From the NCBI RefSeq assembly GCF_988242995.1, contig NZ_OZ547043.1: a DNA stretch of 64,000 nt; one strand, 5' to 3'. Position numbers and translations under genes: made by a program. Each line of letters starts with the position of its first letter. Positions within the stretch are counted from its first letter, which is position 1. Positions 849 through 31,323 of the stretch are shown in pieces. The notes under the pieces were generated by a model. That model saw only the letters and a program-made list of their open reading frames with translations. It searched no databases and was not told where the DNA came from.

Positions 849-3800
849 TTGAGCCAGGAATACACTGAAGACAAAGAAGTCACATTGACAAAGTTAAGTA
901 GCGGCCGCCGCCTTCTGGAGGCGTTGCTGATCCTTATTGTCCTGTTTGCCGTCTGGTTGATGGCTGCCTTACTAAGCTTTAACCCTTCGGACCCCAGCTG
1001 GTCGCAAACGGCCTGGCATGAACCTATCCATAATTTAGGTGGGATGCCCGGTGCGTGGCTGGCAGATACGCTGTTCTTTATTTTTGGCGTGATGGCTTAC
1101 ACCATTCCCGTCATTATTGTCGGCGGTTGTTGGTTTGCCTGGCGTCATCAGTCCAGCGACGAATACATTGATTATTTTGCCGTTTCGCTACGCATCATTG
1201 GCGTTTTGGCGCTCATCCTTACCTCCTGTGGTCTGGCGGCAATCAACGCTGACGATATCTGGTATTTTGCCTCCGGTGGCGTCATTGGCAGCTTACTAAG
1301 CACTACGCTACAACCACTGCTACACAGTAGCGGGGGAACTATTGCGCTGCTCTGCGTTTGGGCTGCGGGTCTGACGCTGTTCACCGGTTGGTCATGGGTG
1401 ACCATTGCTGAAAAACTCGGCGGCTGGATTTTAAACATTCTCACCTTCGCCAGTAATCGTACACGTCGCGATGATACCTGGGTCGATGAAGATGAGTATG
1501 AAGATGACGAAGAGTATGAAGATGAAAATCACGGCAAACAGCATGAATCACGCCGTGCCCGTATTCTTCGCGGCGCGCTAGCGCGTCGTAAACGGTTGGC
1601 GGAAAAATTCATTAATCCGATGGGGCGGCAAACAGATGCTGCGTTGTTCTCCGGTAAGCGGATGGATGATGAAGAAGAGATTACCTACACTGCACGCGGT
1701 GTGGCTGCCGACCCTGACGACGTCCTCTTTTCGGGCAATCGTGCAACGCAGCCAGAATATGACGAGTACGATCCATTATTAAACGGTGCGCCAATTACCG
1801 AACCTGTTGCTGTAGCAGCTGCTGCTACCACGGCGACGCAAAGCAGGGCTGCACCGGTTGAACCTGTGACTCAGACGCCACCTGTTGCCTCTGTTGATGT
1901 TGCACCTGCACAACCTACAGTAGCCTGGCAGCCTGTACCGGGGCCACAAACGGGAGAGCCGGTGATTGCTCCGGCACCGGAAGGTTACCCACAGCAGCCA
2001 CAATATGCGCAGCCTGCAGTGCAATATAATGAGCCGCTGCAACAACCTGTACAGCCACAGCAGCCGTATTATGCGCCTGCGGCGGAACAACCTGTTCAGC
2101 AACCGTATTACGCAACTGCGCCGGAACAGTCTGCGCAACAGTCGTATTACGCCCCTGCGCCGGAACAGTCTGCGCAACAGCCGTATTACGCCCCTGCGCC
2201 AGAACAATCGGTGGCAGGTAACGCCTGGCAAGCCGAAGAGCAGCAATCCACTTTTGCTCCACAGTCTACATACCAGACTGAGCAAACTTATCAGCAGCCA
2301 GTCGCTCAGGAGCCGTTGTACCAACAGCCGCAACCTGTTGAACAGCAGCCTGTTGTGGAGCCTGAACCCGTTGTAGAAGAGACAAAACCCGCGCGTCCGC
2401 CGCTTTACTACTTTGAAGAAGTGGAAGAGAAGCGAGCCCGTGAACGTGAACAACTTGCGGTCTGGTATCAACCGATTCCAGAACCGGTTAAAGAACCAGA
2501 ACCGATCAAATCTTCGCTGAAAGCACCTTCTGTTGCAGCAGTACCTCCAGTAGAAGCCGCTGCCGCTGTTTCTCCGCTGGCATCTGGCGTGAAAAAAGCG
2601 ACACTGGCGACGGGGGCTGCCGCAACCGTTGCCGCGCCAGTCTTCAGTCTGGCAAATAGCGGTGGACCGCGTCCGCAGGTCAAAGAGGGGATTGGCCCGC
2701 AGTTGCCACGACCGAAACGTATCCGCGTGCCAACTCGTCGTGAACTGGCGTCTTACGGTATTAAGCTGCCCTCACAGCGTGCGGCAGAAGAAAAAGCCCG
2801 TGAAGCCCAGCGTAATCAGTACGATTCTGGCGATCAGTACAACGATGATGAAATCGATGCGATGCAGCAGGATGAACTGGCACGTCAGTTCGCCCAGACA
2901 CAGCAGCAACGCTATGGCGAACAGTATCAACATGATGTGCCCGTGAACGCAGAAGATGCAGATGCTGCGGCAGAGGCTGAACTGGCTCGTCAGTTTGCGC
3001 AAACTCAACAACAACGTTATTCCGGCGAACAACCGGCTGGGGCGAATCCGTTCTCGCTGGATGATTTTGAATTTTCGCCAATGAAAGCGTTGCTGGATGA
3101 TGGTCCACACGAACCGTTGTTTACGCCAATTGTTGAACCTGTACAGCAGCCGCAACAACCGGTTGCACCGCAGCAGCAGTATCAGCAGCCACAACAGCAG
3201 GTTGCGCCGCAGCCGCAGTATCAGCAGCCGCAACAGCCGGTTGCACCGCAGCAGCAATATCAGCAGCCACAACAACCGGTTGCACCGCAGCCGCAATATC
3301 AGCAGCCGCAACAGCCGGTTGCACCACAGCCGCAATATCAGCAGCCGCAACAGCCAGTTGCGCCGCAGCCGCATGATACCCTGCTTCATCCGCTGTTGAT
3401 GCGCAATGGTGACAGCCGTCCGTTGCATAAACCGACGACGCCGCTGCCTTCTCTGGATTTGCTGACGCCGCCGCCGAGCGAAGTGGAGCCGGTAGATACC
3501 TTTGCGCTTGAACAAATGGCGCGCCTGGTGGAAGCGCGTCTGGCTGATTTCCGTATTAAAGCCGATGTCGTCAATTATTCTCCGGGGCCGGTTATCACTC
3601 GCTTTGAATTGAACCTGGCACCGGGAGTAAAAGCGGCGCGTATTTCTAACTTGTCACGTGACCTTGCCCGTTCACTTTCGACGGTGGCGGTGCGTGTCGT
3701 TGAAGTTATTCCTGGCAAACCCTATGTAGGTCTGGAGTTACCGAATAAAAAACGACAAACCGTTTATCTGCGCGAAGTTTTGGATAACGCCAAATTCCGC

Positions 3801-5696: not shown

Positions 5697-7040
5697 GTGA
5701 GCAATCTGTCGCTCGATTTTTCGGATAACACTTTTCAACCTCTGGCCGCGCGTATGCGGCCAGAAAATTTAGCACAGTATATCGGTCAGCAACATTTGCT
5801 GGCTGCGGGGAAGCCGTTGCCGCGTGCAATCGAAGCCGGGCATTTGCATTCGATGATCCTCTGGGGGCCACCGGGTACCGGCAAAACAACCCTCGCTGAA
5901 GTGATTGCCCGCTATGCGAATGCTGATGTGGAACGTATTTCTGCCGTCACCTCTGGCGTGAAAGAGATTCGCGAGGCGATAGAGCGCGCTCGGCAAAACC
6001 GCAATGCAGGTCGCCGCACTATTCTTTTTGTTGACGAAGTTCACCGTTTCAACAAAAGCCAGCAGGATGCATTTCTGCCGCATATTGAAGACGGCACCAT
6101 CACTTTTATTGGCGCAACCACTGAAAACCCGTCGTTTGAGCTTAATTCGGCACTGCTTTCCCGTGCCCGTGTCTATCTGCTGAAATCCCTGAGTACAGAG
6201 GATATTGAGCAAGTACTGACTCAGGCGATGGAAGACAAAACCCGTGGCTATGGTGGTCAGGATATTGTTCTGCCAGATGAAACACGACGCGCCATTGCTG
6301 AACTGGTGAATGGCGACGCGCGCCGGGCGTTAAATACGCTGGAAATGATGGCTGATATGGCCGAAGTCGATGATAGCGGTAAGCGGGTCCTGAAGCCTGA
6401 ATTACTGACCGAAATCGCCGGTGAACGTAGCGCCCGCTTTGATAACAAAGGCGATCGCTTTTACGATCTCATTTCCGCACTGCATAAGTCGGTACGTGGT
6501 AGCGCACCCGATGCGGCGCTGTACTGGTATGCACGAATTATTACTGCCGGTGGCGATCCGTTATATGTCGCGCGTCGCTGTCTGGCGATAGCGTCGGAAG
6601 ATGTGGGTAATGCTGATCCACGAGCGATGCAGGTGGCAATTGCGGCCTGGGATTGCTTTACCCGAGTTGGCCCGGCGGAAGGTGAACGCGCCATTGCTCA
6701 GGCGATTGTTTACCTGGCCTGCGCGCCAAAAAGCAACGCTGTCTACACTGCGTTTAAAGCCGCGCTGGCGGATGCTCGCGAACGTCCGGATTATGACGTG
6801 CCGGTTCATTTGCGTAATGCGCCGACGAAATTAATGAAGGAAATGGGCTACGGGCAGGAATATCGTTACGCTCATGATGAAGCAAACGCTTATGCTGCCG
6901 GTGAGGTTTATTTCCCGCCGGAAATAGCACAAACACGCTATTATTTCCCGACAAACAGGGGCCTTGAAGGCAAGATTGGCGAAAAGCTCGCCTGGCTGGC
7001 TGAACAGGATCAAAATAGCCCCATAAAACGCTACCGTTAA
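5697..7040 (+). CDS. rarA: Replication-associated recombination protein A RarA/MgsA (AAA+ ATPase, GTG start)
   Basis: ORF 5697..7040, 447 aa, Walker [12 protein letters not shown]; matches RarA (YcaJ). Confidence 0.93.
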
Positions 7041-7109: not shown

Positions 7110-8423
<1,314 letters not shown>

Positions 8424-8444
8424 TACCCAATTTTTCTGAATCTA

Positions 8445-8469
8445 AAAAGCGCCTGCGGGCGCTTTTTTT
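8445..8469 (+). terminator. Rho-independent terminator of serS
   Basis: aaaaagcgcctgcgggcgcttttttt: GC stem agcgcc/ggcgct with a T7 run, directly after the serS stop. Confidence 0.65.
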
Positions 8470-9180
8470 GTGCACAGAAAACCCCCAGCTAGGCTGGGGG
8501 TTCCGGAAAGCTTTCAGCTTTGAGCCAGTTATTAAAACCCCTTTTGATTTGTTAAAACACCTTGCGGTCTGGCAACTGCAAGTGTCAAACAAGAAATCAA
8601 AAGGGGGTCCCAATGGGGGACGAAAAGAGCTTAGCGCACACCCGCTGGAACTGTAAATATCACATAGTTTTTGCGCCGAAATACCGAAGACTGGCGTTTT
8701 ACGGAGAGAAGCGTAGGGCGATAGGCAGTATTTTGAGAAAGCTGTGTGAGTGGAAAAGCGTACGGATTCTGGAAGCAGAGTGCTGCGCAGATCATATCCA
8801 TATGCTTGTGGAAATCCCACCCAAAATGAGCGTATCCGGCTTTATGGGATATCTGAAAGGGAAAAGCAGTCTGATGCTTTACGAGCAGTTTGGGGATTTG
8901 AAATTCAAATACAGAAACAGGGAGTTCTGGTGCCGAGGGTACTATGTCGATACGGTGGGTAAGAACACGGCGAAGATACGTGACTACATAAAGCACCAGC
9001 TTGAAGAGGATAAAATGGGGGAGCAGTTATCGATTCCATATCCGGGCAGCCCGTTTACGGGCCGTAAGTAACGAAGTTGAATGCAAATGTCAGATCGTAT
9101 GCGCCTGTTAGGGCGCGGCTGGTAACAGAGCCTTACAGGCGCATTTGAAAAACCTCCGGCTATGCCGGAGGATATTTATT
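8467..9180 (+). mobile_element. IS200 insertion sequence, copy 1 (IS200/IS605 family, ~714 bp)
   Basis: Identical to the second copy at 13344..14057 over ~714 bp (both boundaries offset by 4877 bp); encodes IS200 TnpA; left-end hairpin aacccccag/ctgggggtt at 8480..8502 and right-end hairpins including cctccggc/gccggagg. Ends are inferred from where the two copies' flanks diverge, so +/- a few bp. Confidence 0.85.
8613..9071 (+). CDS. tnpA: IS200 transposase TnpA (Y1/HUH transposase, 152 aa)
   Basis: MGDEKSLAHTRWNCKYHIVFAPKYRR...HIHMLVEIPPKMSVS...YYVDTVGKN is the IS200 TnpA sequence with the HuH motif and catalytic Tyr; start taken at the internal Met of ORF 8562..9071. Confidence 0.9.
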   Translation: MGDEKSLAHTRWNCKYHIVFAPKYRRLAFYGEKRRAIGSILRKLCEWKSVRILEAECCADHIHMLVEIPPKMSVSGFMGYLKGKSSLMLYEQFGDLKFKYRNREFWCRGYYVDTVGKNTAKIRDYIKHQLEEDKMGEQLSIPYPGSPFTGRK

Positions 9181-9188
9181 GTCTCCCT

Positions 9189-9202
9189 TTGATACCGAAC
9201 AA
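9189..9202 (+). promoter_or_regulatory. Candidate FNR box of the dmsA promoter (TTGATaccgAACAA)
   Basis: Near match to the FNR consensus TTGAT-N4-ATCAA about 170 bp upstream of the dmsA start; dmsABC is known to be FNR-activated. Assignment is from memory, not verified. Confidence 0.4.
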
Positions 9203-9372
9203 TAATTACTCCTCACTTACACGTAATACTACTTTCGAGTGAAAATCTACCTATCTCTTTGATTTTCAAATTATTCGATGTATACAAGCCTATATAGCGA
9301 CCTGCTATAGAAATAATTACACAATACGGTTTGTTACTGGAATCAATCGTGAGCAAGCTTGAGTGAGCCATT

Positions 9373-11817
9373 ATGAAAACGAAAATCCCTGATGCGGTAT
9401 TGGCTGCTGAGGTGAGTCGCCGTGGTTTGGTAAAAACGACAGCGATCGGCGGCCTGGCAATGGCCAGCAGCGCATTAACATTACCTTTTAGTCGGATTGC
9501 GCACGCTGTCGATAGCGCCATTCCAACAAAATCAGACGAAAAGGTTATCTGGAGCGCCTGTACAGTTAACTGTGGTAGTCGCTGCCCGCTACGTATGCAC
9601 GTCGTGGACGGTGAAATCAAATATGTTGAAACGGATAATACTGGCGATGACAACTATGACGGCCTGCACCAGGTGCGCGCCTGTCTGCGTGGTCGTTCCA
9701 TGCGTCGCCGTGTCTACAATCCGGACCGCCTGAAATATCCGATGAAACGAGTCGGGGCGCGCGGTGAAGGCAAATTCGAGCGCATTAGCTGGGAAGAAGC
9801 CTACGACATCATCGCGACCAATATGCAGCGCCTGATCAAAGAGTACGGCAACGAGTCTATCTATCTGAACTATGGTACCGGTACGCTGGGCGGCACCATG
9901 ACCCGCTCCTGGCCGCCGGGAAATACCCTGGTCGCTCGCCTGATGAACTGCTGCGGCGGTTATCTGAACCATTACGGTGACTACTCTTCCGCGCAAATTG
10001 CGGAAGGTTTGAACTATACCTACGGCGGCTGGGCAGATGGTAACAGCCCGTCGGATATCGAAAACAGTAAACTGGTAGTGCTGTTTGGTAATAACCCTGG
10101 CGAAACGCGAATGAGTGGCGGTGGGGTGACTTACTATCTTGAACAGGCGCGCCAGAAATCTAATGCTCGCATGATCATCATCGATCCGCGCTATACCGAC
10201 ACCGGTGCCGGGCGCGAAGATGAGTGGATCCCTATTCGTCCGGGAACAGATGCCGCACTGGTTAACGGTCTGGCGTATGTCATGATCACCGAAAACCTGG
10301 TGGATCAGGCATTCCTCGATAAATTTTGCGTTGGCTACGACGAGAAAACACTGCCAGCCAGTGCGCCGAAAAATGGTCACTATAAAGCTTATATTCTGGG
10401 TGAAGGGCCAGATGGCGTGGCTAAAACGCCGGAATGGGCCTCGCAAATCACCGGTGTTCCGGCAGACAAAATCATCAAATTGGCTCGTGAAATCGGTAGT
10501 ACCAAACCGGCGTTTATCAGCCAGGGATGGGGCCCGCAGCGTCACGCTAACGGTGAAATCGCAACCCGTGCTATCTCGATGCTGGCGATTCTGACCGGTA
10601 ACGTTGGTATTAATGGAGGGAACAGCGGCGCGCGTGAAGGTTCATACAGCTTACCGTTTGTGCGTATGCCGACCCTCGAAAACCCGATCCAGACCAGCAT
10701 TTCTATGTTTATGTGGACCGATGCCATTGAACGTGGCCCGGAAATGACAGCGCTGCGTGATGGTGTGCGCGGGAAAGATAAGCTGGATGTGCCGATCAAA
10801 ATGATCTGGAACTATGCCGGTAACTGCCTGATTAACCAGCATTCTGAAATCAACCGTACCCATGAAATCCTTCAGGATGATAAGAAGTGCGAGCTGATTG
10901 TGGTTATCGACTGCCACATGACCTCATCAGCGAAATATGCTGACATCCTGCTGCCTGACTGCACCGCTTCCGAACAGATGGACTTTGCACTGGATGCATC
11001 CTGCGGGAATATGTCTTACGTGATTTTCAACGATCAGGTGATTAAACCGCGCTTTGAATGTAAGACCATCTATGAAATGACCAGCGAACTGGCAAAACGT
11101 CTTGGCGTTGAGCAACAGTTTACTGAAGGCCGTACACAGGAAGAGTGGATGCGGCATCTGTATGCCCAGTCGCGGGAAGCGATTCCTGAACTGCCAACGT
11201 TTGAAGAGTTCCGCAAGCAGGGGATCTTTAAAAAGCGCGACCCACAAGGGCACCACGTTGCTTATAAAGCTTTCCGTGAAGATCCTCAGGCAAATCCACT
11301 GACCACGCCATCGGGTAAAATTGAGATTTATTCGCAGGCGCTGGCTGACATTGCCGCGACCTGGGAATTGCCAGAAGGCGATGTGATCGATCCACTGCCG
11401 ATCTATACGCCGGGCTTTGAAAGTTATCAGGATCCGCTGAACAAACAATATCCGCTGCAGCTTACTGGCTTCCACTACAAATCTCGCGTTCACTCAACTT
11501 ACGGCAACGTTGATGTGCTGAAAGCAGCTTGCCGTCAGGAAATGTGGATCAACCCGCTTGATGCACAAAAACGCGGTATCAACAACGGCGATAAAGTCAG
11601 GATCTTTAACGATCGTGGTGAGGTTCATATTGAGGCGAAAGTGACGCCACGAATGATGCCGGGTGTGGTCGCACTGGGTGAAGGTGCCTGGTATGACCCG
11701 GATGCAAAACGTGTCGATAAGGGCGGTTGTATCAACGTACTGACCACTCAACGTCCGTCTCCTCTCGCGAAGGGGAATCCGTCGCATACAAACCTTGTTC
11801 AGGTTGAAAAGGTGTAA
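9373..11817 (+). CDS. dmsA: Anaerobic DMSO reductase catalytic subunit DmsA (molybdopterin, Tat signal)
   Basis: ORF 9373..11817, 814 aa; twin-arginine signal SRRGLVKTTAIGGLAMASSALTLPFSRIAHA and CTVNCGSRC FeS motif. Confidence 0.95.
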   Translation: MKTKIPDAVLAAEVSRRGLVKTTAIGGLAMASSALTLPFSRIAHAVDSAIPTKSDEKVIWSACTVNCGSRCPLRMHVVDGEIKYVETDNTGDDNYDGLHQVRACLRGRSMRRRVYNPDRLKYPMKRVGARGEGKFERISWEEAYDIIATNMQRLIKEYGNESIYLNYGTGTLGGTMTRSWPPGNTLVARLMNCCGGYLNHYGDYSSAQIAEGLNYTYGGWADGNSPSDIENSKLVVLFGNNPGETRMSGGGVTYYLEQARQKSNARMIIIDPRYTDTGAGREDEWIPIRPGTDAALVNGLAYVMITENLVDQAFLDKFCVGYDEKTLPASAPKNGHYKAYILGEGPDGVAKTPEWASQITGVPADKIIKLAREIGSTKPAFISQGWGPQRHANGEIATRAISMLAILTGNVGINGGNSGAREGSYSLPFVRMPTLENPIQTSISMFMWTDAIERGPEMTALRDGVRGKDKLDVPIKMIWNYAGNCLINQHSEINRTHEILQDDKKCELIVVIDCHMTSSAKYADILLPDCTASEQMDFALDASCGNMSYVIFNDQVIKPRFECKTIYEMTSELAKRLGVEQQFTEGRTQEEWMRHLYAQSREAIPELPTFEEFRKQGIFKKRDPQGHHVAYKAFREDPQANPLTTPSGKIEIYSQALADIAATWELPEGDVIDPLPIYTPGFESYQDPLNKQYPLQLTGFHYKSRVHSTYGNVDVLKAACRQEMWINPLDAQKRGINNGDKVRIFNDRGEVHIEAKVTPRMMPGVVALGEGAWYDPDAKRVDKGGCINVLTTQRPSPLAKGNPSHTNLVQVEKV

Positions 11818-11827
11818 GGAGTAACCG

Positions 11828-12445
11828 ATGACAACCCAGTATGGATTTTTAATTGATTCCAGCCGTTGCACCGGTTGCAAAACCTGCGAGCTGGCCTGTA
11901 AAGACTATAAAGATCTGACGCCGGAAGTCAGCTTCCGCCGCATTTATGAATATGCTGGCGGTGACTGGCAGGAAGATAACGGTGTCTGGCATCAGAACGT
12001 GTTTGCCTACTATCTGTCGATTTCATGTAACCACTGCGAAGATCCGGCTTGTACTAAAGTCTGCCCGAGTGGTGCGATGCATAAACGTGAAGATGGTTTT
12101 GTTGTAGTCGATGAAGATGTGTGCATTGGCTGCCGCTACTGCCATATGGCTTGCCCGTATGGCGCACCGCAATATAACGAAACGAAAGGCCATATGACCA
12201 AATGCGATGGTTGTTATGACCGTGTTGCGGAGGGGAAAAAGCCGATCTGTGTTGAATCTTGCCCGCTGCGGGCGCTGGATTTCGGCCCTATCGACGAGCT
12301 GCGTAAAAAACATGGCGATCTGGCGGCCGTTGCGCCGTTGCCGCGAGCTCACTTTACCAAACCGAATATTGTGATCAAACCCAATGCCAACAGCCGCCCG
12401 ACCGGGGATACCACTGGCTATCTGGCAAACCCGAAGGAGGTGTGA
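11828..12445 (+). CDS. dmsB: DMSO reductase iron-sulfur subunit DmsB (4x[4Fe-4S])
   Basis: ORF 11828..12445, 205 aa, several CxxCxxCxxxCP ferredoxin motifs. Confidence 0.95.
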   Translation: MTTQYGFLIDSSRCTGCKTCELACKDYKDLTPEVSFRRIYEYAGGDWQEDNGVWHQNVFAYYLSISCNHCEDPACTKVCPSGAMHKREDGFVVVDEDVCIGCRYCHMACPYGAPQYNETKGHMTKCDGCYDRVAEGKKPICVESCPLRALDFGPIDELRKKHGDLAAVAPLPRAHFTKPNIVIKPNANSRPTGDTTGYLANPKEV

Positions 12446-12446
12446 G

Positions 12447-13310
12447 ATGGGAAGTGGATGGCATGAATGGCCGCTGATGATCTTCACGGTCTTCGGGCAA
12501 TGTGTAGCGGGTGGTTTTATCGTTCTGGCTTTGGCGCTGCTCAAAGGCGACCTGCGAGCAGAAGCCCAGCAGCGTGTTATTGCCTGCATGTTTGGTTTAT
12601 GGGTGCTGATGGGCATTGGCTTTATCGCCTCTATGCTTCATCTTGGTTCACCGATGCGCGCCTTTAACTCGCTCAACCGGGTAGGGGCTTCAGCACTCAG
12701 TAACGAAATCGCCAGCGGTTCGATCTTTTTTGCTGTTGGTGGCATCGGCTGGTTACTGGCAATGCTGAAAAAGCTGTCACCGGCATTGCGTACGCTGTGG
12801 CTGGTGGTGACGATGGTTCTTGGCGTCATCTTTGTCTGGATGATGGTGCGTGTCTATAACAGCATCGATACCGTACCCACCTGGTACAGCATCTGGACAC
12901 CGATGGGCTTCTTCCTGACGATGTTCATGGGCGGCCCGTTACTGGGTTACCTGTTGCTGAGTCTGGCTGGCGTCGATGGCTGGGCGATGCGTCTGCTGCC
13001 AGCCATTTCTGTACTGGCACTGGTAGTGAGTGGCGTGATGTCAGTGATGCAGGGCGCAGAGCTGGCGACTATTCATAGTTCTGTGCAGCAGGCCGCAGCG
13101 CTGGTGCCGGACTATGGTGCGCTGATGTCCTGGCGGATCGTGCTTTTGGCTGTTGCCCTGTGTTTGTGGATTGCACCACAGCTAAAAGGTTATCAGCCTG
13201 CGGTTCCGCTACTATCCGTCTCATTCATTTTGCTTCTGGCAGGAGAATTAATCGGCCGCGGCGTATTCTATGGTTTGCATATGACCGTGGGGATGGCCGT
13301 CGCAAGCTAA
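12447..13310 (+). CDS. dmsC: DMSO reductase membrane anchor subunit DmsC
   Basis: MGSGWHEWPLMIFTVFGQCVAGGFIVLALALL within ORF 12384..13310; start chosen at the Met following an aggagg RBS, 1 bp after the dmsB stop. Confidence 0.9.
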   Translation: MGSGWHEWPLMIFTVFGQCVAGGFIVLALALLKGDLRAEAQQRVIACMFGLWVLMGIGFIASMLHLGSPMRAFNSLNRVGASALSNEIASGSIFFAVGGIGWLLAMLKKLSPALRTLWLVVTMVLGVIFVWMMVRVYNSIDTVPTWYSIWTPMGFFLTMFMGGPLLGYLLLSLAGVDGWAMRLLPAISVLALVVSGVMSVMQGAELATIHSSVQQAAALVPDYGALMSWRIVLLAVALCLWIAPQLKGYQPAVPLLSVSFILLLAGELIGRGVFYGLHMTVGMAVAS

Positions 13311-13318
13311 TCAGTAAC

Positions 13319-13346
13319 AACCGGGGTTTCGACCCCGGTTCTCTTT
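13319..13346. terminator. Hairpin after dmsC (aaccgggg...ccccggtt), probably the native bidirectional dmsC/ycaC terminator
   Basis: Perfect 8-bp GC-rich stem with a T-rich tail ctcttt; lies between the dmsC stop and the left end of IS200 copy 2. Confidence 0.5.
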
Positions 13347-14057
13347 GTGCACAGAAAACCCCCAGCTAGGCTGGGGGTTCCGGAAAGCTTTCAGCTTTGA
13401 GCCAGTTATTAAAACCCCTTTTGATTTGTTAAAACACCTTGCGGTCTGGCAACTGCAAGTGTCAAACAAGAAATCAAAAGGGGGTCCCAATGGGGGACGA
13501 AAAGAGCTTAGCGCACACCCGCTGGAACTGTAAATATCACATAGTTTTTGCGCCGAAATACCGAAGACTGGCGTTTTACGGAGAGAAGCGTAGGGCGATA
13601 GGCAGTATTTTGAGAAAGCTGTGTGAGTGGAAAAGCGTACGGATTCTGGAAGCAGAGTGCTGCGCAGATCATATCCATATGCTTGTGGAAATCCCACCCA
13701 AAATGAGCGTATCCGGCTTTATGGGATATCTGAAAGGGAAAAGCAGTCTGATGCTTTACGAGCAGTTTGGGGATTTGAAATTCAAATACAGAAACAGGGA
13801 GTTCTGGTGCCGAGGGTACTATGTCGATACGGTGGGTAAGAACACGGCGAAGATACGTGACTACATAAAGCACCAGCTTGAAGAGGATAAAATGGGGGAG
13901 CAGTTATCGATTCCATATCCGGGCAGCCCGTTTACGGGCCGTAAGTAACGAAGTTGAATGCAAATGTCAGATCGTATGCGCCTGTTAGGGCGCGGCTGGT
14001 AACAGAGCCTTACAGGCGCATTTGAAAAACCTCCGGCTATGCCGGAGGATATTTATT
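13344..14057 (+). mobile_element. IS200 insertion sequence, copy 2 (same orientation as copy 1)
   Basis: Identical to 8467..9180 judging by identical six-frame ORFs and visible sequence; flanks differ on both sides. Right end abuts the ycaC stop codon. Confidence 0.85.
13490..13948 (+). CDS. tnpA: IS200 transposase TnpA (second copy)
   Basis: Translation identical to the TnpA at 8613..9071. Confidence 0.9.
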   Translation: MGDEKSLAHTRWNCKYHIVFAPKYRRLAFYGEKRRAIGSILRKLCEWKSVRILEAECCADHIHMLVEIPPKMSVSGFMGYLKGKSSLMLYEQFGDLKFKYRNREFWCRGYYVDTVGKNTAKIRDYIKHQLEEDKMGEQLSIPYPGSPFTGRK

Positions 14058-14683
14058 TATTTCTGCTTCGTTAATGTGTCATAACTGGTCATCAAATTAC
14101 GATAATCAGGAATGTGGTTAGAGAACAACGTCGCCAGTCCTTCAATATCATTACGCCAGTCACGGTGCAGCTCGCACGCCACGCCGAACCATGTCATCAA
14201 TTGCGCACCAGCTTGCGACATGCGATCCCATGCCGAATGCCGGGTAATTTCATTAAAGGTCCCTGACGCGTCAGTCACGACAAATACATCAAACCCTTCT
14301 TCAATGGCTGAAAGCGCCGGGAATGCCACGCAAACTTCGGTTACCACACCGGCAATAATTAACTGTTTTTTACCTGTCGCTTTGACAGCTTTTACAAAAT
14401 CTTCGTTATCCCAGGCGTTAATATTTCCCGGGCGAGCAATGTAAGGTGCATCGGGAAACTGTGCTTTCAGTTCTGGAACTAATGGGCCGTTAGGACCGGT
14501 TTCAAAACTGGTGGTAAGAATAGTAGGTAAGTTGAAATACTTAGCCAGGTCGCCCAGCGCCAGCACGTTATTTTTAAACTTATCGGGTTCGATATCCCGT
14601 ACAAGGGAAAGTAAACCAGCCTGGTGATCAACAAGCAAAACGGCAGCATCATTTTTATCAAGACGAACATACGGTTTGGTCAT
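14057..14683 (-). CDS. ycaC: Isochorismatase-family hydrolase YcaC
   Basis: ORF 14057..14683 (-), 208 aa, MTKPYVRLDKNDAAVLLVDHQAGLLSLVRD with the cysteine-hydrolase fold signature. Confidence 0.9.
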   Translation of the reverse strand: MTKPYVRLDKNDAAVLLVDHQAGLLSLVRDIEPDKFKNNVLALGDLAKYFNLPTILTTSFETGPNGPLVPELKAQFPDAPYIARPGNINAWDNEDFVKAVKATGKKQLIIAGVVTEVCVAFPALSAIEEGFDVFVVTDASGTFNEITRHSAWDRMSQAGAQLMTWFGVACELHRDWRNDIEGLATLFSNHIPDYRNLMTSYDTLTKQK

Positions 14684-29649: not shown

Positions 29650-31323
29650 ATGACTGAATCTTTTGCTCAACTCTTTGAAGAGTCCTTAAAAGAAATCGAA
29701 ACCCGCCCGGGTTCTATCGTTCGTGGCGTTGTTGTTGCTATCGACAAAGACGTAGTACTGGTTGACGCTGGTCTGAAATCTGAGTCCGCCATCCCGGCTG
29801 AGCAGTTCAAAAACGCCCAGGGCGAGCTGGAAATCCAGGTAGGTGACGAAGTTGACGTTGCTCTGGACGCAGTAGAAGACGGCTTCGGTGAAACTCTGCT
29901 GTCCCGTGAGAAAGCTAAACGTCACGAAGCCTGGATCACGCTGGAAAAAGCTTACGAAGATGCTGAAACTGTTACCGGTGTTATCAACGGCAAAGTTAAG
30001 GGCGGCTTCACTGTTGAGCTGAACGGTATTCGTGCGTTCCTGCCAGGTTCTCTGGTAGACGTTCGTCCGGTGCGTGACACTCTGCACCTGGAAGGCAAAG
30101 AGCTTGAATTCAAAGTAATCAAGCTGGATCAGAAGCGCAACAACGTTGTTGTTTCTCGTCGTGCCGTTATCGAATCCGAAAACAGCGCAGAGCGCGATCA
30201 GCTGCTGGAAAACCTGCAGGAAGGCATGGAAGTTAAAGGTATCGTTAAGAACCTCACTGACTACGGTGCATTCGTTGATCTGGGCGGCGTTGACGGCCTG
30301 CTGCACATCACTGACATGGCCTGGAAACGCGTTAAGCATCCGAGCGAAATCGTCAACGTTGGCGACGAAATCACTGTTAAAGTGCTGAAGTTCGACCGCG
30401 AACGTACCCGTGTATCCCTGGGCCTGAAACAGCTGGGCGAAGATCCGTGGGTAGCTATCGCTAAACGTTATCCGGAAGGTACCAAACTGACTGGTCGCGT
30501 GACCAACCTGACCGACTACGGCTGCTTCGTTGAAATCGAAGAAGGCGTTGAAGGCTTGGTACACGTTTCCGAAATGGATTGGACCAACAAAAACATCCAC
30601 CCGTCCAAAGTTGTTAACGTTGGCGATGTAGTGGAAGTTATGGTTCTGGATATCGACGAAGAACGTCGTCGTATCTCCCTGGGTCTGAAACAGTGCAAAG
30701 CTAACCCGTGGCAGCAGTTCGCGGAAACCCACAACAAGGGTGACCGTGTTGAAGGTAAAATCAAGTCTATCACTGACTTCGGTATCTTCATCGGCCTGGA
30801 CGGCGGCATCGACGGCCTGGTTCACCTGTCTGACATCTCCTGGAACGTTGCAGGCGAAGAAGCAGTTCGTGAATACAAAAAAGGCGACGAAATCGCTGCA
30901 GTTGTTCTGCAGGTTGACGCAGAACGTGAACGTATCTCCCTGGGCGTTAAACAGCTCGCAGAAGATCCGTTCAACAACTGGGTTGCTCTGAACAAGAAAG
31001 GCGCTATCGTAACCGGTAAAGTAACTGCAGTTGACGCTAAAGGCGCAACCGTAGAACTGGCTGACGGCGTTGAAGGTTACCTGCGTGCTTCTGAAGCATC
31101 CCGTGACCGCGTTGAAGACGCTACCCTGGTTCTGAGCGTTGGCGACGAAGTTGAAGCTAAATTCACCGGCGTTGATCGTAAAAACCGCGCAATCAGCCTG
31201 TCTGTTCGTGCGAAAGACGAAGCTGACGAGAAAGATGCAATCGCAACTGTTAACAAACAGGAAGATGCAAACTTCTCCAACAACGCAATGGCTGAAGCTT
31301 TCAAAGCAGCTAAAGGCGAGTAA
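29650..31323 (+). CDS. rpsA: 30S ribosomal protein S1
   Basis: ORF 29650..31323, 557 aa, [34 protein letters not shown] and repeated S1 domains. Confidence 0.97.

Follow-up and report, generated by a model that had tools for sequence, protein, structure and literature searches.

We describe here a 64,000-nt stretch of DNA (contig NZ_OZ547043.1 of RefSeq assembly GCF_988242995.1), referred to throughout as the window, in which the dmsABC operon lies between two copies of the insertion sequence IS200. The dmsA, dmsB and dmsC genes are all intact; serS lies upstream of them and ycaC downstream, and this serS-dmsABC-ycaC order is the one annotated in K-12 and other Escherichia coli. The positions of the genes, of the two IS200 copies and of the structures discussed below are collected in Table 1.

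Table 1. Genes, IS200 copies and terminator-associated structures of the serS-ycaC region (positions of the window)
Feature	Position	Strand	Description and basis
serS coding sequence	7131..8423	+	Open reading frame list; gene order as annotated in relatives and K-12
serS intrinsic terminator	8444..8469	+	Hairpin AAAAAGCGCC-TGCG-GGCGCTTTTT, then a 7-T tract at 8463-8469; target of copy 1; DNA fold
IS200 copy 1, 711 bp	8470..9180	+	Comparison of filled with empty site; boundary movable by up to 2 nt
Left-end hairpin of copy 1	8480..8502	+	AACCCCCAGC-TAG-GCTGGGGGTT, preceded by GAAAA; fold; equals the published IS200 left-end terminator
STnc490 match (IS200 5' untranslated region/art200 region)	8480..8603	+	Rfam, 146 bits (gathering score 56)
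tnpA of copy 1	8613..9071	+	152 aa, Y1/HUH transposase; sole open reading frame of the element
STnc130 small RNA match	9140..9282	-	Rfam; runs into the IS200 right end
Right-end hairpin of copy 1	9153..9171	+	CCTCCGGC-TAT-GCCGGAGG, with GAAAAA before it and ATATTTATT after it, up to the element end
Intact 192 bp upstream of dmsA (regulatory region)	9181..9372	+	Equals the empty-site intergenic region of L002 and L004, save one base in L004
dmsA	9373..11817	+	Open reading frame list, relatives
dmsB	11828..12445	+	Open reading frame list, annotation of relatives
dmsC	12447..13310	+	Start by analogy with K-12 and RefSeq annotation; C-terminus translated
dmsC intrinsic terminator	13319..13346	+	Hairpin AACCGGGG-TTTC-GACCCCGGTT and tail CTCTTT; target of copy 2; fold
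IS200 copy 2, 711 bp	13347..14057	+	Comparison of filled with empty site
tnpA of copy 2	13490..13948	+	Identical to tnpA of copy 1, offset 4877 bp
ycaC	14057..14683	-	Open reading frame list; stop codon 14057-14059 takes the element's last T

An initial annotation of the window had described identical direct repeats about 4.9 kb apart, with identical TnpA reading frames, one between serS and dmsA and the other between dmsC and ycaC, and had called them IS200. Each part of this description holds. By pairwise match extension, 8467-9180 and 13344-14057 form an uninterrupted run of 714 bp at 100% identity, far from anything expected by chance. The copies have the same orientation and a start-to-start spacing of 4877 bp, and each encodes the same protein of 152 residues. 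Outside the run, the sequences are unrelated on both sides of both copies, and a BLAST search with the element against the entire window returned two matches only, copies 1 and 2. Their locations can be refined: each copy sits within the T-tract of an intrinsic terminator, that of serS for copy 1 and that of dmsC for copy 2, and is co-oriented with it. Copy 2, in addition, touches the stop codon of ycaC.

The limits of the mobile unit follow from comparison with sites that lack it. The empty serS-dmsA site, represented by comparison loci L002 and L004, reads GCGGGCGC-TTTTTTT-GTCTCCC, and the empty dmsC-ycaC site, represented by L001 and L005, reads GGTTCTC-TTTT-ATTTCTGC. Filled and empty sites differ by a plain insertion of 711 bp, beginning GTGCAC and ending TTTATT, with no target-site duplication at either site. 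The three surplus bases of the 714-bp run are T's contributed by the target tracts at the two sites, and since T's are present at both ends of the element, the boundary can slide by as much as 2 nt. At other E. coli sites, too, the element is 711 bp long. No inverted repeats were reported between positions 7000 and 16,000.

In identity and in anatomy the element is a standard IS200, a member of the IS200 group of the IS200/IS605 family. Its TnpA matches the Pfam family Y1_Tnp (PF01797; 8e-37) and the NCBIfam model transpos_IS200 (NF033573; 144 bits, cutoff 55), and the HUH motif (DHIHMLV) and the tyrosine region (YYVDT) are both visible. Relatives with solved structures include the TnpA proteins of IS608 and ISDra2 (PDB 2a6m/2vhg and 2xm3; E 1e-15 to 1e-19). 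At 711 bp there is no space for a second gene. The hairpin near the left end is presumed to be the one that TnpA binds; it coincides with the terminator described at nt 12-34 of IS200 (PMC4513863). A long stem-loop in the 5' untranslated region (8538-8606) covers the Shine-Dalgarno sequence, and the Rfam family STnc490 is matched in both copies. The right-end hairpin is terminator-like on both strands. Taken as a set, the left-end, right-end and 5' untranslated region structures have fold z-scores of -5.4, -3.3 and -6.2, the last of these belonging to the untranslated region. The nearest E. coli elements in RefSeq are annotated as IS200/IS605 family (99.6% identical) and IS200C family (~96%); more broadly, some E. 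coli have copies that share 99.6-100% identity with the element, and IS200C-type copies share ~96%.

These features recur in the IS200 elements of Salmonella and E. coli, which likewise are ~0.7 kb long and encode a lone 152-aa Y1/HUH TnpA. The layout, too, is the published one (PMC4513863), with a left-end terminator, a stem-loop covering the Shine-Dalgarno sequence, the STnc490/art200 region and a right-end hairpin; inverted repeats and target duplications are absent from all. The length differs slightly, 711 bp here versus the 707 bp quoted for Salmonella. Set against the reputation of IS200, the element of the window also stands apart in looking recently active in its lineage.

Evidence for that activity comes from relatives of the window, found as contigs encoding exactly its DmsA. 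In the complete genome CP057479.1 (L051), the flanks agree with those of the window over 5,810 and 4,473 nt without a single mismatch, the dmsABC stretch shows one mismatch, and IS200 is absent from both sites. The flanks are the same in the draft contig NLZY01000006.1 (L052), whose serS-dmsA site is empty and which ends 78 nt into an IS200 situated directly after dmsC. A metagenome contig (L050), 99.96% identical to the window, comprises IS200, dmsABC and the start of a second IS200. All three states, no copy, copy 2 only and both copies, thus exist within one clone, and such a zero-, one- and two-copy series among clones with identical flanks is direct evidence of recent IS200 jumps in an E. 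coli lineage. The 100% identity between the two copies of the window likewise speaks for recent insertion. Judged from these sequences, the copy at the dmsC-ycaC site most likely inserted first and that at the serS-dmsA site second. The dmsABC operon itself was not imported, since identity between the window and other E. coli is 97.3-99.4% across segments, without a step at the boundaries of the elements. We consider it highly probable, from these comparisons, that the two copies are separate and very recent insertions of a single active IS200 variant into the native serS-dmsABC-ycaC locus of E. coli.

The arrangement is rare, and both sites are empty in K-12 MG1655. We surveyed 5,426 complete E. 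coli genomes from RefSeq. The backbone of the window is at most 99.3% identical to any of them (CP057479.1 lies outside this set), and the lineage of the window is therefore not represented. IS200 occupies the serS-dmsA site in 2 of the 5,426 (S1-CAM-04-C and PCN033) and the dmsC-ycaC site in 18; none has both copies. Query coverage at the serS-dmsA site of PCN033 is only 79%, because a prophage lies there between serS and IS200. The occupant of the serS site in S1-CAM-04-C and PCN033 is an IS200C-type variant, 96% identical to the element of the window. Among the 18 genomes with an occupied dmsC site, at least two variants of the element are combined with two flank haplotypes. Both sites, then, have been struck at the same nucleotide and in the same orientation by different variants on different haplotypes, and the orthologous dmsC terminator of Citrobacter braakii also carries an IS200. 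Rare as it is, the arrangement is unsurprising, and the element was already known. The prophage of PCN033 (L005, 1-7020) is P2-like, with genes for an integrase, Cox and a replication endonuclease, and the serS terminator hairpin recurs at its right edge; a similar integrase/Cox module lies beside pflA in strain B20105 (L003, 12782-15314).

The positions of the two copies conform to a rule that extends well beyond this locus. We scanned across species, one genome per species, with the first 20 bases of the element as the query. This yielded 32 loci from Citrobacter, Kluyvera, Brenneria, Mangrovibacter, Pluralibacter, Entomohabitans, Kosakonia, Yersinia pekkanenii and others. The left flank is terminator-like, that is, a GC-rich hairpin with a T-rich tail running straight into the element, in 28 of the 29 distinct informative flanks, compared with 53 of 20,000 random positions of the same loci (Fisher p = 1e-68). 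Positions -1 and -2 are T in all 29. Where TTTTNTT motifs occur without IS200, such a hairpin is present in only 10%, and so it is the hairpin that counts, not the T's alone. (An earlier terminator classifier, in which A:T pairs had lengthened the stems and shortened the T-tails, under-counted, at 19/31, and was replaced.) When E. coli and other Enterobacterales are taken together, terminator geometry is found in 41 of 42 distinct left flanks, and in 36 of the 42 the final G/C pair of the stem stands 6-9 nt away from the element; in several of the spacing outliers, G or C bases of the tail have been drawn into the predicted stem. Further E. coli sites are alike: behind amtB, a Gly-Cys-Leu tRNA cluster, yfeX, a CNNM-family gene, the ccm operon, a YdgH/BhsA-family gene, a purL-type formylglycinamide ribonucleotide (FGAR) amidotransferase gene, recA and an RNB-family exoribonuclease gene. 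The target rule of IS200 is insertion ~7 nt 3' of a GC-rich hairpin, in the T-tract of a terminator and co-oriented with it. It accounts for independent lineages, and another genus, having been hit at the same nucleotide. A sharp and testable rule for IS200 is thereby gained.

Several observations made along the way concern the surroundings of these insertions. IS1541, between pheL and pheA in Yersinia, fits the same pattern. In the E. coli loci examined, IS200 is often found between convergent genes (amtB-IS200-tesB in L038, yfeX-IS200-pbp4b in L040, and L041-L044), where it follows directly upon the terminator of the co-oriented gene and abuts the stop codon of the opposing one, as it does between dmsC and ycaC. 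Two of these loci, L042 (GCA_964045655.1) and L044 (GCA_005384585.1), have a common right flank after IS200, on the side of a response-regulator gene, but differ on the left, where one has the terminator of the ccm operon and the other that of the purL-type FGAR amidotransferase gene. This mismatch points to IS200-mediated rearrangement, or to misassembly across the repeat. Some Enterobacterales (L007-L012 and L035) retain mere left-end fragments of IS200, of ~30 to 505 nt, beside a terminator; in Y. pekkanenii (L035), ~1.3 kb of other DNA interrupts an IS200 at nt 71.

How might such targeting come about? Like other members of the IS200/IS605 family, IS200 is expected to transpose as a single strand ('peel and paste'), by way of a single-stranded circle, and would integrate ~7 nt 3' of the GC-rich hairpin, within the T-tract and in the orientation of the terminator. 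The dmsABC operon has a co-oriented terminator on either side, the serS terminator ahead of it and its own at the end, and hits at both have therefore enclosed it in 711-bp direct repeats. IS608 reads its target, TTAC, by means of a guide, AAAG, situated 5' of the left-end hairpin (PMC5027513). In IS200, GAAAA is found 5' of both the left-end and the right-end hairpins, and by analogy with IS608 the T-tract may be read by pairing with this putative guide. Alternatively, or in addition, a terminator and its T-tail of ~7 nt could mimic the right end of the element, taken as a hairpin, 9 T-rich nt and a cleavage site; the right end does finish with a hairpin and ATATTTATT. Strand context fits that of the family. 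The + strand has a positive GC skew, and in K-12 the locus maps at 0.94 Mb on the + strand; the top strand of the element is therefore the lagging-strand template, where the active strand is reported to lie in IS200/IS605 elements (PMC5027513).

IS200 resembles IS608 and ISDra2 in having a homologous TnpA and subterminal hairpins at its ends, in inserting 3' of a short specific sequence without duplication, and in an orientation that agrees with an active strand on the lagging-strand template (PMC5027513). It differs from them in lacking tnpB and in the nature of its target. IS608 inserts at TTAC and ISDra2 at TTGAT, and neither needs a hairpin, whereas IS200 inserts in a T-tract at a set distance from a hairpin, with GAAAA as its putative guide. 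In choosing extragenic hairpins, IS200 recalls the REP-associated tyrosine transposases (RAYTs) and other elements that target such structures (e.g. ISPpu9; PMC8450116). Unlike RAYTs and the elements that target repetitive extragenic palindromes (REPs), it uses terminator hairpins with a T-tail rather than REPs, and it is a mobile insertion sequence rather than a domesticated gene. Its TnpA matches the RAYT model weakly (29.8 bits, below the cutoff of 80).

Terminators delimit transcription units, and the rule therefore tends to box whole operons between direct repeats; operons so boxed are ready substrates for loss or amplification. Were the mimicry of the right end true, pairs of IS200 would box whole transcription units by construction. 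The full chain of proposals, that TnpA reads a single-stranded terminator as its own right end, that IS200 pairs box transcription units in consequence, and that an IS200-dmsABC circle or tandem array exists in nature, is a speculative one to which we attach a low probability; the hint at it is the metagenome contig L050, a closed cycle of exactly one repeat period.

A number of points weigh against the main account, that of two recent insertions placed by the target rule. Genome surveys cannot separate targeting from selection for the least harmful sites; the narrow spacing of 6-9 nt argues for targeting, short of proof. The tail at the target of copy 2, CTCTTT, fits the T-tract consensus poorly. 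IS200 has been described as almost immobile in the laboratory (PMC4513863), and its recent activity here is deduced solely by comparing genomes. The order of the two insertions was drawn from a sample biased toward long contigs. Part of the target rule, finally, may have been published already. One recent preprint reports that terminator-like sequences are the most over-represented ones upstream of IS200/IS605 elements (10.1101/2025.07.22.666184); in the literature searched, which did not cover the older IS200 and IS1541 papers, we found no explicit statement of IS200 target choice beyond this statistical one and some indirect hints.

For the genome in which they reside, the insertions are of little consequence. 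The operon and its neighbors are intact, and the elements are textbook IS200. Upstream of dmsA, copy 1 has altered none of the 192 bp, and the -35-like TTGTCT found at the junction is present in the empty site as well. At the other end, the stop codon of ycaC is rebuilt with the last T of the element and the reading frame is unaltered. The insertions do affect the terminators of transcripts coming from the opposite direction. In the Rfam alignment of the STnc130 small RNA, the terminator stem of the model, normally the serS terminator read backwards, is here the IS200 right-end hairpin followed by TTTTT, and on the minus strand the right-end hairpin of copy 2 now closes ycaC. The terminator-like hairpins at both ends would thus insulate the element, and could stand in for the terminators displaced from the convergent ycaC and STnc130 transcripts. 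Because the genes and the 192 bp are intact, the ycaC stop is regenerated and hairpins are present at the element ends, both insertions are probably close to neutral. In the literature searched, nothing usable was found on the mapping of the dmsA promoter.

The dmsABC operon is dispensable, and its position between identical direct repeats of ~0.7 kb is reminiscent of the IS200-IS200 duplications of Salmonella, from which it differs in that the segment is just 4.2 kb, exactly one operon. Such duplications are said to be frequent (Haack & Roth 1995, as cited in PMC13423834), and recombination between two flanking copies of an insertion sequence is, according to the citing paper, a common route to gene amplification. 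By analogy, the 711-bp repeats of the window plausibly form a substrate for RecA-mediated deletion or tandem amplification of dmsABC. To this extent the proposal of the initial annotation stands; its products are another matter. With synthetic deletion (serS-IS200-ycaC) and amplification (dmsC-IS200-dmsA) junctions as queries, and a threshold of at least 80% coverage, neither junction was found in any of the 5,426 complete E. coli genomes.

One could suppose, further, that the pair was selected, either for deletion or amplification of dmsABC or because copy 1 alters the expression of dmsA. The Salmonella precedent lends this some color, as does contig L050. This 5,017-bp contig (ENA ERZ27271663, k141_65833) corresponds to 8468-13484 of the window. 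Its last 140 bases repeat its first 140, which is k-1 for an assembly at k = 141, and 5,017 - 140 = 4,877 bp is exactly the repeat period; L050 is therefore a closed cycle of one period in the assembly graph. The meaning of the cycle is ambiguous. It could represent a circle or a tandem array of raised copy number, or an artefact of the graph, formed where direct repeats lead to the pruning of flanking branches. Against selection stand the absence of either junction among the surveyed genomes, the unchanged 192 bp before dmsA with TTGTCT already in the empty site, and the fact that the target rule alone accounts for both positions. An adaptive origin thus seems to us decidedly unlikely, and we prefer separate, recent insertions that followed the target rule.

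The initial annotation had also remarked on a resemblance to a composite transposon. It is correct that a pair of insertion-sequence copies flanks a passenger, and one might envisage the two outer ends, left for copy 1 and right for copy 2, carrying dmsABC, now or in the past, as a 5.6-kb unit: both outer ends are intact, correctly oriented and on the same strand, and a Y1 transposase needs, in principle, one left and one right end. The resemblance goes no further. Between serS and ycaC the operon is at its ancestral place, the one it has in K-12; no divergence step marks the element boundaries; and the block was found at no other location in the genomes and contigs searched. A composite-transposon origin of the block is excluded, the locus being native and an IS200-free relative having the same dmsABC (one mismatch) between flanks that are 100% identical. 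Single-stranded gaps at replication forks average ~1.5-2 kb (PMC5027513), and ends 5.6 kb apart would rarely be single-stranded together; movement as a unit is therefore also unlikely, and taken together this reading has very little to recommend it.

An assembler might, instead, have misplaced one or both copies. E. coli genomes carry IS200 in multiple copies, with as many as 36 matching places in one genome, and repeats of this kind often break or misjoin assemblies, L044 versus L042 being a possible case. The junctions at issue, however, recur independently. L050 spans those between the right end of copy 1 and dmsA and between dmsC and the left end of copy 2, L052 separately backs the latter, and other genomes carry IS200 at exactly these nucleotides, so that an artefact is hardly to be believed. 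The junction between serS and the left end is backed only by genomes with a different IS200 variant; the metagenome scan, in which assemblies break at IS200 copies, yielded no junction of the serS terminator with the left end.

Segmental duplication, or gene conversion between older, diverged IS200 copies, is scarcely tenable: conversion could also produce 100% identity, but the flanks are unrelated up to 3 T's, each site has an exact empty counterpart in genomes with identical flanks, and a one-copy intermediate (L052) exists, as befits the two insertions that the initial annotation had proposed.

Two further sets of repeats lie elsewhere in the window. At 3105-3412 are six tandem copies with a period of 39 nt, 65-100% identical, located inside ftsK according to alignment with L051 and L052; they probably represent the repetitive linker region of that gene. 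At 30361-30954, three 72-nt direct repeats, spaced 261 nt apart and 69-100% identical, fall in what is the rpsA region in relatives, consistent with the repeated S1 domains that rpsA encodes.

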